64,000 nt of DNA, taken from the NCBI GenBank assembly GCA_022763365.1, contig JALEGN010000001.1:30514-94513 (forward strand). Direction: 5' to 3'. Positions 32,131 through 35,241 of this stretch are shown piece after piece. The number at the start of each line of letters is the position of its first letter. Within the stretch, counting starts at the first letter, position 1. The stretch is from Minisyncoccota bacterium. GTDB taxonomy: Bacteria > Patescibacteriota > Minisyncoccia > Phycocordibacterales > UBA1006. Made by a program: the position numbers and the translations under genes. The notes under the pieces were generated by a model. That model did no database searches, was not told the origin of the DNA, and worked only from the letters and a program-made list of their open reading frames with translations.

Positions 32131-33803
32131 ATACTTTACAGCGACAAGTAAATACTTTAAAAAAACGTATGCAAATTAAAGTAGAGGAGCGACCTTTACG
32201 TTTTGATAAACAGAAAAAAGACTATATTAAAAAACTTTTTTTAGTGCAGAAAAAACATATCTTAAGGCTGCTTGCACTGGTTATTGGAATAAGTCTCATA
32301 GAGATAAGTGCCCCATTATTTCTTGATATCTTTTTGTCAAAGCACTCTTTTAATCTGAGGGCGAATACCTTGTTTGCCGCAGGTATAATCTTGTTTTTAA
32401 TAGTAATTATTTATTTAGTTATTAGTTATTTTGCTTTAGCAATTCAAAAAAGGCTGACATTAAATATTATTAATAAGGTGCGAGAAGATTGGTTACGTTT
32501 TTATATCAATAAGAAACCACTCACACTTAATAGTAAAGACAAAGGGAATGTTTTTGTAAAAATTAGCTATCATCTTTCGTTGTTACAAATGGGATTAGGG
32601 AATTCTTTATTTAGTTTTTTTCAATGGATATTATATTTTGGTGGAGTCTTAATAGTGAGTGCTATCATCGATATAAAATTACTCTCTATTTCATTAATTT
32701 TTATTCCAATAAATATTCTTATTGTTGGTATTAGTTATATTTTCTCCGCATACTATTTAGCCAAAGATCAAACTTTGTATTCAAAAATACTCAGGTATAT
32801 TTCTGATACCTTTGAGCGATTTGAATTAGTTAAATCATTTAATAAAGAAAATACATTCATTCGTGAGGTGAACGATATGATTGAGATTGATAATCATTTT
32901 CGTATTAAGCGTGAGATTGTACTTCGTTATGGAAATAATATTATTTTCGCCATACTTACATTACTCACCATAGGAACCTACATAATTAATTTATATAATC
33001 CAACCTTACTTGCATTTACTTCAACAAGTTCATTAGTTCAAATTCTTATTTTTGGACTCCATCTTCGTTTAGTTTATCTTAGTATGCGGATGGGCTTGTT
33101 TTATTTCCCTTTGAAACTAGGATTGTTTTTATCAGTTCCACCAACGATATTCTTTAAAAAAGGTAAGCATCTAAAGTCCATACAACATCTTGGTTTTCGC
33201 ACTCCTAAGGTGAAACTATTTACTAATGATTCATATCAAAAAAATATTCAGTTTGATTTTGAAAAAGGTAAAAATTATCTCATCCTTCATTCAAAAGAGG
33301 AACGATTAGTGAATATGAATCATGTATTTGCTGGTATTGCATCATATAGAAAAGGGATTCAATGGGTTGTTCACGCGAACAAACAGCGCTTACTGTATAG
33401 TCGTTTTTATGAGGCGCAAAAAAATATATTTTATATTCACAAAAACCTCTATTCTCATGGTTCAATATATGAACTTCTGAATAATCATAGTAACTTAGAA
33501 ACTCTTACTCAATATCCAGAATTTGATTTTATTTTTCAAAAAAGAAAATTTGTTGCTGATAACTATTCTCCAGAAAATTTTGACATTCAAGATCTCTTCC
33601 TAATTCAGGTCGCATATTGTTTGATGGCAAATCCTGACATAGTTGTCGTTGACGAATGTTATGCCGACATACATTATGACCGTATCAATGAGGGTATTGA
33701 TTTACTCAGATTAAAATATGATGGTATTCTCATAGTAAGTTCTCGAAACAACTCCCAAAATCAAGATAATTATCATGTCACTTATACACTTCGTAAAAAG
33801 TAA
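32127..33803 (+). CDS. polytopic membrane protein with a C-terminal degenerate ABC-ATPase-like domain (ABC-exporter-like pseudo-ATPase)
   Basis: A ~6-TM N-terminal half is followed by an NBD-like region. The Walker A position reads LILHSKEERLV (degenerate). The signature position reads QDLFLIQ in place of LSGGQ. Walker B IVVVDE is intact. The H-loop position reads IVSSR. The start overlaps the RT stop (ATGA). Confidence 0.6.
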   Translation: MNTLQRQVNTLKKRMQIKVEERPLRFDKQKKDYIKKLFLVQKKHILRLLALVIGISLIEISAPLFLDIFLSKHSFNLRANTLFAAGIILFLIVIIYLVISYFALAIQKRLTLNIINKVREDWLRFYINKKPLTLNSKDKGNVFVKISYHLSLLQMGLGNSLFSFFQWILYFGGVLIVSAIIDIKLLSISLIFIPINILIVGISYIFSAYYLAKDQTLYSKILRYISDTFERFELVKSFNKENTFIREVNDMIEIDNHFRIKREIVLRYGNNIIFAILTLLTIGTYIINLYNPTLLAFTSTSSLVQILIFGLHLRLVYLSMRMGLFYFPLKLGLFLSVPPTIFFKKGKHLKSIQHLGFRTPKVKLFTNDSYQKNIQFDFEKGKNYLILHSKEERLVNMNHVFAGIASYRKGIQWVVHANKQRLLYSRFYEAQKNIFYIHKNLYSHGSIYELLNNHSNLETLTQYPEFDFIFQKRKFVADNYSPENFDIQDLFLIQVAYCLMANPDIVVVDECYADIHYDRINEGIDLLRLKYDGILIVSSRNNSQNQDNYHVTYTLRKK

Positions 33804-35241
33804 ATTAACGCGTACTAAAAAGTATCTTCCAAAGATAGCTTTTTTTGCTGGGTGTGGAGTACTACTCCTTTTTATATTAAGTTTTATTTTTAATGGCAGA
33901 ATAGTTGTTCATTCAGAATATCAACCGAGAAAAGAAATAATTTCAGAATTACCTTTTGAGGCTGAAATATATTTTAACGATTTAGATAATCATAATGAGT
34001 TCGGTCAAAGAATTACCGATGTGATTACTAGCGCCAATGAATATATCGGTATTGCTATGTATTCATTTAATGATGAAAAACTTATCAAGCTACTGGAACA
34101 AAAACATCAATCTGGAATCGAGGTAGTGGTAATTCTTCCAAAAAATAAAGGTCATATTGAAAAAGGTTTATTTAGTGATACCTCATTTAAAATTCTCGAA
34201 GTTGGTGATGAACAAGAAACGGATGTAACCGATTCTTCGCTATCATCATTTATGCATCATAAATTTATCATTACTGATCCAGAGTTAGATAGTGGGGAAG
34301 TGTTATTTGGAAGTACTAACCTCACTGAGTATCAGCAAAAATTTGACTCAAACTTTTTTGTAGTAACTTCTGATAATCACATTAAACAAGCTTTTGTAGA
34401 TGAGTTTAGATTACTTGAACAAGGTAGATATAGTACGCGGAAATTTAAAAAGAATTTTGCCCCTTTTACGCTAAAAGGGCAGTGGAGTGATGGTTTTTTT
34501 GAGTTATGGCTCGGCCCTGGTTTTCGAAATAATAGTCTTAAGCAGCGAATGATTGATGCAATTAATGATGCAGAATCAACGATTGATATTATTGGTTGGC
34601 GGATTAATGATAGAGATATTTATCGAGCTTTACAATCAAAGGCATTAGAAGGAGTGACAATAAGGATTATCTTAGATGATTATTATATGTGGAATGATAT
34701 TTCTGTTGCCAGCAATAGAAATTCTTGGCACGAGAATATAACATTCATATCTGATTCATATAAGGATGTTCTCTTTCAGAATGATATTATTATGAAAAAT
34801 GAATACCTTCCAGACACCTTCAATTCATTTCTTCATCATCATACGATGATCATTGATGATACTATTCTCGTTGCAGGAAGTAATAACTGGGGTTACCGTG
34901 GTTTTTATTTAAACGATGAATTAGCTTTTGTTACTGACGATACATATCTTGTAAATCGTTATATCGAAGAATTTAATTATCTAGATAAACAATTCCTCGG
35001 GAGAGCTTTAAATGTACAGATTGATAATGAAGATAATCTTATTTTTAATCACAATATAAGTGATTACTACACTACAGTATATGTGGAGCAAAGTTATCCA
35101 GACTGGTTAGGGTATACATGTCAAAAAATCCTCCCGAATGAAGATAAAAAAATACAAGAAAAATGTATTACTGATACGACAAGGATATTTGTTCATGATG
35201 TCGATTATCAGTTGTATGGAAGTAGCTACTTATCTCGCTAA
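33775..35241 (+). CDS. phospholipase D / HKD-superfamily protein (Nuc- or cardiolipin-synthase-like) with an N-terminal TM anchor; the second HKD motif has His in place of Lys
   Basis: TM IAFFAGCGVLLLFILSFIF. HKD-1 HHKFIITD...GSTN. HKD-2 HHHTMIIDDTILVAGSNN (HxH(x)4D(x)6GSxN). Confidence 0.7.
   Translation: MSLIHFVKSKLTRTKKYLPKIAFFAGCGVLLLFILSFIFNGRIVVHSEYQPRKEIISELPFEAEIYFNDLDNHNEFGQRITDVITSANEYIGIAMYSFNDEKLIKLLEQKHQSGIEVVVILPKNKGHIEKGLFSDTSFKILEVGDEQETDVTDSSLSSFMHHKFIITDPELDSGEVLFGSTNLTEYQQKFDSNFFVVTSDNHIKQAFVDEFRLLEQGRYSTRKFKKNFAPFTLKGQWSDGFFELWLGPGFRNNSLKQRMIDAINDAESTIDIIGWRINDRDIYRALQSKALEGVTIRIILDDYYMWNDISVASNRNSWHENITFISDSYKDVLFQNDIIMKNEYLPDTFNSFLHHHTMIIDDTILVAGSNNWGYRGFYLNDELAFVTDDTYLVNRYIEEFNYLDKQFLGRALNVQIDNEDNLIFNHNISDYYTTVYVEQSYPDWLGYTCQKILPNEDKKIQEKCITDTTRIFVHDVDYQLYGSSYLSR

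Follow-up and report, generated by a model that had tools for sequence, protein, structure and literature searches.

The locus described here lies in a 64,000-nt stretch of the genome of a Minisyncoccota bacterium (GenBank assembly GCA_022763365.1, contig JALEGN010000001.1, positions 30,514 to 94,513, forward strand), hereafter called the window. A structured non-coding RNA (ncRNA) is followed there by genes for a reverse transcriptase (RT), for a half transporter with the fold of an ATP-binding cassette (ABC) exporter and for a membrane-anchored protein of the phospholipase D (PLD) superfamily (Table 1). The PLD protein, in which His takes the place of the catalytic Lys in the second HKD motif, is the main subject of this work. 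The genes are closely packed: the ABC gene begins 4 nt inside the end of the RT gene, its own end shares 29 nt with the start of the PLD gene, and the gene for RNase HII begins 6 nt after the PLD stop.

Table 1. Features of the locus, in window coordinates (TM, transmembrane; TMD, transmembrane domain; NBD, nucleotide-binding domain).
Feature	Position	Strand	Basis
Structured ncRNA, ~327 nt	30570..30896	+	folding, shuffles, relatives
Reverse transcriptase, 411 aa	30895..32130	+	Pfam RVT_1, 7.7e-14
ABC-exporter-fold half transporter, 558 aa, six-helix TMD + NBD	32127..33803	+	Pfam ABC_membrane, 7.5e-13
PLD-superfamily protein, 488 aa	33775..35241	+	Pfam, HMMER, AlphaFold2
Lys/Arg-rich tail, predicted cytoplasmic (aa 1-17), and single TM signal-anchor helix (aa 18-40)	33775..33894	+	sequence, AlphaFold2, family charge
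HKD motif 1, canonical (H161, K163, D168 ... G179-S-T-N182), lobe 1	34255..34320	+	translation
Motif 2, non-canonical (H354, H356, D361 ... G368-S-N-N371), lobe 2	34834..34887	+	translation, HMMER
C-terminal beta-rich domain, aa 409-488, with conserved Cys pair	34999..35238	+	AlphaFold2, family alignment

Fold and active site of the PLD protein

Pfam finds the PLDc_2 domain twice in the protein (E = 7.8e-38), and an AlphaFold2 model built from 10 homologues (pLDDT 83.9, pTM 0.82) divides it into a helix at residues 2-15, a TM helix at 18-40, two lobes at 53-215 and 231-407 and a beta-rich part at 409-488, with strands across residues 409-485 at pLDDT ~90. This extra C-terminal domain is limited to the ~490-aa form of the family. 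The motif 1 stretch of the gene translates to HHKFIITDPELDSGEVLFGSTN, in which HHKFIITD...GSTN fits HxK(x)4D(x)6G[ST]xN in lobe 1, and the motif 2 stretch translates to HHHTMIIDDTILVAGSNN, in which HHHTMIID...GSNN keeps the spacing of the canonical extended motif exactly (H354-x-H356-x4-D361-x6-G368-S-N-N371). Since HMMER aligned H354-H355-H356 of the query onto H-H-K of the solved MitoPLD/Zucchini, H356 occupies the Lys position. An earlier interpretation made from the letters of the DNA alone, below called the sequence-only reading, had described the first motif as standard and the second as carrying His for the catalytic Lys; translation and alignment bear out both statements, with no Lys to be found at the catalytic position.

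Similarity searches placed the protein among PLDs of several kinds. The top Foldseek match of the model was vaccinia F13 (E 5.9e-18), followed by Serratia PLD 7e0m, PLD1/2, PssA and PLD3, while the best sequence matches were the nucleases NucT and MitoPLD/Zucchini, the NCBIfam NucT models and DrmC of PADLOC. Pfam additionally reported the SACK1/FAM83 pseudo-PLD domain, and one source names relatives of the protein 'phosphatidylserine/phosphatidylglycerophosphate/cardiolipin synthase-like enzyme'. Helix-hairpin-helix (HhH) DNA-binding domains occur in the nearest relatives outside the family. Both motifs are followed by GS or GT and not by GG; GS in place of GG is a feature noted for the nucleases Zuc, NucT and Nuc (PMC8004604). 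Scores against curated models were low throughout, reaching 40.2 bits for the cardiolipin synthase model TIGR04265 (cut-off 290) and 23.2 bits for PRK12452 (787), at best 58.7 bits for the Nuc/NucT models (PRK13912, cut-off 297) and 40.4 bits for DISARM DrmC (NF038319, cut-off 133), where the genes within ~12 kb are housekeeping genes. The sequence-only reading had offered a cardiolipin-synthase-like or a Nuc-like protein; a housekeeping cardiolipin synthase no longer fits, as detailed below, and between the two broader kinds Foldseek returned generic two-lobed PLDs of both.

Conservation of the Lys-to-His change

In a word-indexed homologue search, 10 close homologues with 33-54% identity were obtained, none of which departs from H354, H355 or H356. 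When 1.84 billion protein cluster representatives were searched with a profile, 106 sequences reached E <= 1e-30, and beyond them the scores fell steeply to those of generic PLDs; the family comprises about 100 clusters at 50% identity. Scanning of ~100 family representatives gave HxK for motif 1 and, where motif 2 could be matched, HxH, the exceptions being HQR and HEQ (one each) and HHN (two); Lys was seen at the second-motif position in none of them. Outgroup PLDs in the same match list displayed HxK in each motif that was matched. Among 59 diverse members, which are 25-40% identical to the window protein, H161, K163, D168, H354, D361 and N371 are invariant, E382 and both Asn residues of the GSxN stretches are invariant or nearly so, and H356 is conserved to at least 90%. 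An independent set, gathered via the RT, agreed with this, with His at the Lys position in 39 of 40 PLDs and HxK as motif 1 in all 40.

Judged by this conservation, the Lys-to-His substitution is a signature of the family and neither chance nor the quirk of a single gene. Since both His, the Lys and Asp of motif 1, the Asp and Asn of motif 2 and E382 have been kept, the pattern is that of a working, asymmetric site composed of HxK and HxH and not of a decayed one. As an enzyme, the protein represents a deeply conserved variant that is new to the PLD superfamily. For PLD enzymology, a naturally occurring and long-conserved exchange of Lys for His in the HKD active site allows a direct test of the role of the second Lys, which could show in pH dependence or leaving-group specificity.

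Membrane anchor and predicted orientation

Residues 1-40 of the PLD protein read MSLIHFVKSKLTRTKKYLPKIAFFAGCGVLLLFILSFIFN. A strongly hydrophobic segment near residue 17 is found in 86 of the 87 full-length family members, which together with the modelled helix upholds the N-terminal membrane tether of the sequence-only reading. Net charge is higher before the helix than after it in 83 of these 87 proteins, with means of 5.6 Lys/Arg and 0.4 Asp/Glu before and 2.7 Lys/Arg and 2.1 Asp/Glu after the helix. By the positive-inside rule this bias therefore points to a signal anchor with the N-terminus inside and the C-terminus, including the catalytic domain, outside the cytoplasm.

The distribution of Cys residues was considered in addition. 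Exactly two Cys follow the TM helix in 33 of 41 long forms, and in a 10-sequence alignment of close homologues both lie inside the C-terminal beta domain. Two proteins (P0008 and P0009) have lost both Cys together with the intervening loop, and 29 of the 46 short forms, which are without the C-terminal domain, have no Cys after the helix. Confinement of the Cys pair to the extra C-terminal domain therefore fits an outward-facing orientation. From the charge bias and the Cys pair together, we consider it likely, with good confidence, that the catalytic domain resides outside the cytoplasmic membrane.

Genomic linkage and distribution of the module

The order RT, ABC, PLD with overlapping reading frames was observed in ~48 loci for which enough DNA was available, and in these the PLD gene was never found without the RT and ABC genes. 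The same order was present in all 10 family loci examined first, on the three long contigs with the nearest PLD homologues (flanked in one case by entirely different genes, SecDF and FtsW), in all five family loci among the GTDB species genomes, including a Falkowbacteria metagenome-assembled genome (MAG), and in all 38 metagenome loci which were found via the RT and had enough downstream DNA. The other GTDB carriers are MAGs labelled Saccharibacteria or plain 'bacterium'. In the same GTDB scan, none of the 70 loci with PLD relatives from outside the family had an RT or ABC gene. Clustering of flanking open reading frames (ORFs) gave only RT, ABC and PLD as common members (63, 51 and 46 loci), with the next neighbour present in 15 loci. 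The short contigs of two distant RT relatives (L133, L135) offer little DNA, and neither an ABC nor a PLD gene was seen on them. In L122 and L125 the ABC gene, joined in L125 by the PLD gene, is transcribed from the other strand, away from the RT, and the contig of L122 stops before PLD; the RT-ncRNA and ABC-PLD units can therefore be transcribed separately.

The synteny ThrRS-DAGK-DnaE on one side and RNase HII-L32-NusB-RNase III-SMC on the other is preserved in six relatives (DnaE 76-91% identical to that of the window). Neither gene calls nor tblastn revealed RT, ABC or PLD in these six, and DnaE lies beside RNase HII. The sequence-only reading had allowed for an orthologue of a housekeeping cardiolipin synthase that is conserved in syntenic relatives lacking the RT. 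The relatives without RT are also without PLD and ABC, and this joint absence favours a link to the RT and speaks against a housekeeping cardiolipin synthase. In a neighbour-joining DnaE tree without support values, the carriers (window, L005/L006, L001, L081) fall into two separate clades, and the sister of the window is a non-carrier. Taken together with the joint absence, this indicates that the site acquired or lost RT, ABC and PLD jointly. The four parts, ncRNA, RT, ABC and PLD, are inherited and lost together.

Comparison of the same genome pairs gave identities of 34-41% for PLD, 34-48% for ABC, 49-54% for RT and 74-88% for DnaE. PLD and ABC thus diverge faster than the RT, as is expected of exposed or conflict-driven proteins. 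The module occurs in at least two differently named groups of the candidate phyla radiation (CPR), namely Candidatus Pacebacteria, to which NCBI names assign the window, and Falkowbacteria, the latter belonging within the Parcubacteria group of Patescibacteria, and as far as seen it is limited to CPR/Patescibacteria. It should be noted that one 4-kb contig with the module (L010, JAGQYS010000144.1) is binned in a 'Flavobacteriaceae' MAG and that a DnaE 83% identical to that of the window is labelled Crocinitomicaceae; both look like binning contamination.

Reverse transcriptase, structured RNA and ABC partner

The RT carries the motif A Asp at D147 and YRRVGDD as motif C, with VGDD kept in 44 of 48 relatives; from the conservation of these residues the enzyme is probably active. 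It has no endonuclease or other fused domain. In PADLOC, the generic RT model (4.1e-32, 110 bits) and UG26 (4.6e-28, 96 bits) were matched, both models being without curated cut-offs, and the NCBIfam group II model TIGR04416 gave 115.7 bits (cut-off 300). On reading the RT sequence, no retron VTG or NAxxH motifs were seen. Three kinds of mobile element were considered and rejected. A group II intron is contradicted by the sub-threshold RT score, by the lack of an Rfam intron match or of intron RNA domains and by the overlap of the ABC reading frame with the RT stop; because the ORFs overlap, no room is left for domains D5/D6. A diversity-generating retroelement (DGR) would require a template and a variable repeat (TR/VR), and a scan of the whole 64-kb window for 30-nt matches allowing no more than one non-A mismatch found none. 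As for a phage-borne element, the one IMG/VR match is the same RT as that of a 976-kb CPR contig. PHROGs returned only generic RT, ABC and PLD families.

The 437-nt gap between dnaE and the RT gene contains a GC-rich stretch full of hairpins. For the ncRNA region of Table 1, a minimum free energy of -122.7 kcal/mol was calculated, compared to -66.9 +/- 4.9 kcal/mol for dinucleotide shuffles (z = -11.5). The predicted fold has a closing stem of ~28 bp, formed by about 30570-30600 and 30867-30896, with several hairpins inside, among them a perfect GC-rich hairpin at about 30708-30740, and the 3' strand of the closing stem extends into the RT start codon (ATG at 30895). Across loci, a structured RNA of ~250-330 nt is located just upstream of the RT, and most loci display a GC-rich island 100-200 nt upstream of it; in the divergently arranged L125, a GC-rich stretch is located ~160 nt upstream. 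In a subgroup of 12 loci, RNAalifold predicted 55 pairs, 33 of them with compensatory changes; among the pairs are a closing stem of ~24 bp and G-U pairs compatible with the RT strand only. Pacebacteria-type loci, including the window, have closing stems unrelated in sequence, with a similar layout of closing stem, small hairpin, TTATCA/TGATAA-type helix and variable GC hairpins, and the TTATCA/TGATAA-type helix covaries to TTGCTC/GAGCAA in L002 and L007. The 3' 45 nt pair better with the upstream region of their own locus (median -30.6 kcal/mol) than with that of other loci (-20.0 kcal/mol). Homology of the three ncRNA subgroups was judged by eye from their common architecture. Rfam gave no match at E <= 1 in the window region and none at the gathering threshold in five other loci.

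The family profile of the ABC protein matches TM287/288, BmrCD, ABCB1/4, PCAT1 and MsbA over both TMD and NBD, and its AlphaFold2 model (pLDDT 78.5) retrieved BmrCD, TM288, TAP, MsbA and PglK in Foldseek with TM-scores up to 0.70. By profile and model it is thus a genuine type IV exporter fold (ABCB/MsbA-like). The Walker A motif GxxxxGK[ST] is kept in 26 of 46 relatives and lost in the lineage of the window, whose protein has LHSKEERLVN at this place; an LSGGQ signature was present in none of the family members scanned for Walker A (the 46 relatives and the window protein). ATP dependence of the partner may therefore differ by lineage.

Neighbouring genes

Several genes recur next to the module in parts of the family. 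Type IV pilin-like genes with the N-terminal methylation motif lie directly upstream of the ncRNA or just downstream of PLD in several lineages (L002 3399-3959, L005 6205-6777, L081 5290-5787, L104, L105, L108, L103), and in L008, L009, L120, L123, L127 and L128 genes for a PilT-like ATPase and a ComEC-like metallo-beta-lactamase are found just upstream. About 10 loci of one subgroup (L089, L090, L092, L095, L100-L102, L107, L110, L126) encode a membrane-anchored protein of ~194 aa with an internal repeat 50-140 nt 3' of PLD, a homologue of which lies upstream of the RT in L099 and L132; the module of that lineage may include it as a fourth protein.

At the site itself, two relatives without the module carry a gene for a 176-aa staphylococcal nuclease (SNase) in the slot between dnaE and RNase HII (L137 6702-7232 and L139 6487-7017, both on the minus strand), and the SNase of L139 has an N-terminal signal anchor and lies beside a ~206-aa multi-pass membrane protein. 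Downstream of the module in the window, a 220-aa ORF between the genes for RNase HII and NusB (35933-36595, +) has no match in Pfam, NCBIfam, PADLOC or PHROGs. Several syntenic relatives have an unannotated gene of about 210-234 aa at the same place, the likeness being one of size and position. A single ORF (36940-38019, +) combines NusB, NUDIX and a Rho_N/SAP-like C-terminal domain, a fusion kept in syntenic relatives.

Proposed role of the PLD protein and alternative explanations

We tentatively propose, with a confidence somewhat below even, that the PLD protein is the outward-facing catalytic subunit of a four-part accessory module of CPR bacteria and possibly a defence effector, a reading composed of several separate claims. 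The protein would be an active phosphodiesterase or transphosphatidylase with its active site on the outer face of the cytoplasmic membrane. A protonated His at the Lys position could still provide a hydrogen bond or charge to the phosphate and would suit the outer face, which is more acidic. Of all components, only the ABC protein both spans the membrane and has a cytoplasmic domain, and it would therefore couple the RT-ncRNA complex to the PLD protein, either by conformational signalling or by export of something on which the PLD protein acts. The module would then be a conflict or defence system, in which the PLD effector cleaves phospholipid or nucleic-acid phosphodiesters at the cell surface. 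Among possible roles, defence seems most likely because of the analogy to retrons and defence-associated RTs (DRTs), which likewise combine ncRNA, RT and effector, and because of the patchy distribution. The sequence-only reading had already considered an effector of an RT-based system plausible. The link to the RT stood in all loci with enough DNA; the implied action inside the cell did not, given the charge bias in 83 of 87 members and the Cys pair.

Several observations weigh against this proposal. The outward orientation is itself a prediction from charge and Cys pair. For RT-based defence it would be unusual to have the effector outside the membrane, where a cytoplasmic RT product would have to reach or regulate it. 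The PLD protein scores below all curated family model cut-offs, and no homologue of known function lies above any. A Lys from another part of the fold might compensate for H356. The ectodomain is acidic, with an isoelectric point (pI) of 4.7 in the window protein and a family median of 5.2 (RT and ABC protein are basic, pI ~9.7), and is therefore unlike what is expected of a non-specific DNA-binding nuclease. Loss of Walker A in the lineage of the window implies that ATP-driven export or signalling may not operate here. PADLOC recognises no system at the locus, and the region from 19 to 48 kb of the window consists of core genes throughout (GyrB, ThrRS, DAGK, DnaE, RNase HII, NusB, RNase III, SMC, RNase R, S16 and SecA among the neighbours), with no defence island.

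Regarding the substrate, sequence affinities lean towards a nuclease, whereas the acidic ectodomain and the flippase-like partner lean towards lipid, and in Foldseek the ssDNA exonuclease PLD3 was matched as well as lipid enzymes. Extracellular DNA is hinted at by the genes for pilin, PilT and ComEC-like proteins that a minority of loci have nearby and by the signal-anchored SNase in the same slot of two relatives. The strongest alternative to the proposed effector is a NucT/EndA-like, membrane-anchored surface nuclease for extracellular DNA, serving competence, nucleotide scavenging or the destruction of incoming DNA together with type IV pili and ComEC, and regulated or assisted by RT-ncRNA and ABC. 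The best sequence matches (NucT, MitoPLD/Zucchini, DrmC), the HhH domains of the nearest outgroups, the GS or GT after both motifs as in Zuc, NucT and Nuc, the catalytic domain predicted to face outward, the pilin-like, PilT-like and ComEC-like genes near the module and the SNase in the same slot of two relatives all argue for it. We nevertheless regard it as unlikely, since the ectodomain is acidic, scores against nuclease models stay far under their cut-offs, pilins are common in CPR genomes and adjacent in 15 of 63 loci only, and no role is left for RT and ncRNA, the most strictly linked partners.

Somewhat less probable still is a function in lipid acquisition or remodelling, in which the PLD protein would hydrolyse or exchange head groups of own or host phospholipids and the ABC protein would flip the lipid, leaving RT-ncRNA as a regulatory or selfish passenger. 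CPR bacteria are not known to synthesize lipids and must obtain them from hosts, the active site would be tethered at the membrane surface, the structural matches comprise F13, Serratia PLD 7e0m, PLD1/2 and PssA, and the ABC fold resembles the lipid flippases MsbA, PglK and ABCB4. Against it, the strict linkage to an RT and a conserved structured RNA is not accounted for, close relatives lack the module, the window lineage has lost Walker A, and the cardiolipin synthase model is matched at 40 bits versus 290.

It is improbable, to a further degree, that loss of the second Lys ended catalysis and turned the fold into a binding module or anchor, as in FAM83 and partly in F13. The canonical Lys is indeed missing in all members, SACK1/FAM83 is matched in Pfam and F13 is the best structural match. 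The rest of the active-site set, however, is invariant or nearly so at 25-40% identity, and the replacement is nearly always His and rarely Arg, Gln or Asn, all of which can hydrogen-bond phosphate.

That the PLD gene is cargo of a mobile retroelement descended from a DGR or group II intron, whose RT would act in mobility or mutagenesis and not in a shared function, is very improbable: the RT is closest to group-II-intron-type RTs and the module is patchily present at one chromosomal site, but intron RNA domains (Rfam), TR/VR repeats and an endonuclease domain are all missing, the sole IMG/VR match is identical to the RT of the 976-kb contig, and the genes keep one order even between deeply separated CPR lineages. 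A housekeeping synthase of cardiolipin or phospholipid that happens to adjoin the RT, suggested by the label which one source gives to relatives and by the housekeeping nature of the flanking genes, is effectively refuted by the curated-model scores (TIGR04265, 40 bits versus 290), by the absence of the whole module from six syntenic relatives, by the PLD gene never standing alone in ~48 loci and by the single anchor with a domain predicted to face outward.

In a further reading, the output of the system itself might act outside the cell, which would make it the first RT system of this kind; we regard this as a long shot. Part of the ncRNA would be reverse-transcribed into DNA, either free or primed by a protein; this DNA, or its conjugate with a lipid or peptide, would cross the membrane by way of the ABC protein; and the outward-facing HKD/HHD enzyme would cleave it or transfer it to a surface acceptor by transphosphatidylation. 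If true, CPR cells would display or release RT-made nucleic acid, for example in host attachment, signalling or as a decoy. More generally, if the outward prediction holds, a link of reverse transcription to the cell surface needs explaining. A four-part accessory module is notable in tiny CPR genomes with few known defence systems, and its hosts are uncultivated.

Comparison with known systems

RT-based multi-gene systems such as retrons and DRTs are a fast-moving field, and to our knowledge their effectors act inside the cell. The module resembles retrons in its structured RNA with a long terminal stem directly upstream of the RT, followed by accessory or effector genes, and in its patchy distribution. 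It differs from them in its RT, which best matches generic RT, UG26 and group II models and not retron-type models. In the accessible parts of the literature searched, an ABC exporter and an outward-facing PLD linked to retrons were not found, nor was the combination of RT, ABC and PLD found in the literature searched. Class 2 UG/DRT systems (DRT2/UG2, DRT9/UG28, DRT10/UG17) likewise have a stand-alone RT after a sizeable structured ncRNA (PMC9226505), yet these RTs act alone or with other partners. UG26 is the nearest UG model of the window RT, a model without curated cut-off whose match does not imply clade membership, and is sometimes found with a Vsr-like endonuclease (PMC9226505). The same UG/Abi survey does not mention PLD, phospholipase, ABC, transporter or membrane, and an RT review does not mention phospholipase or ABC.

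Among PLDs, ClsA (TIGR04265) shares the two lobes and the membrane association. ClsA is a two-helix, cytoplasm-facing protein, whereas the window protein is predicted to face outward, has HxH as motif 2, is accessory and is linked to an RT. F13 and FAM83 are precedents for PLD folds with altered motifs, both having lost catalytic residues; in the window protein one Lys has changed, conservatively, and both His are invariant. FAM83 is reported to show no PLD activity (PMC6008594).

PLD3/PLD4 were matched in Foldseek (E ~3e-15) at a sequence identity of 12-13%. They are type II membrane proteins with a two-lobed, non-cytosolic catalytic domain, the same arrangement that is predicted for the window protein. 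They are eukaryotic lysosomal, lumenal ssDNA 5' exonucleases with the canonical Lys in both motifs and, unlike the window protein, are not known to have an RT or ABC partner. Closest in sequence, for both lobes, are Nuc, NucT and Zucchini (MitoPLD), with which the layout HxK(x)4D(x)6GSxN ... N-x-E is shared, and MitoPLD has the same N+11 Glu spacing as lobe 2. Nuc and NucT are extracytoplasmic. Nuc, NucT and Zucchini are homodimers of ~150-200 aa with identical HKD motifs, whereas the protein described here is a fused pseudo-dimer which combines HxK with HxH and, unlike them, carries a signal anchor and, in its long form, an extra beta domain.

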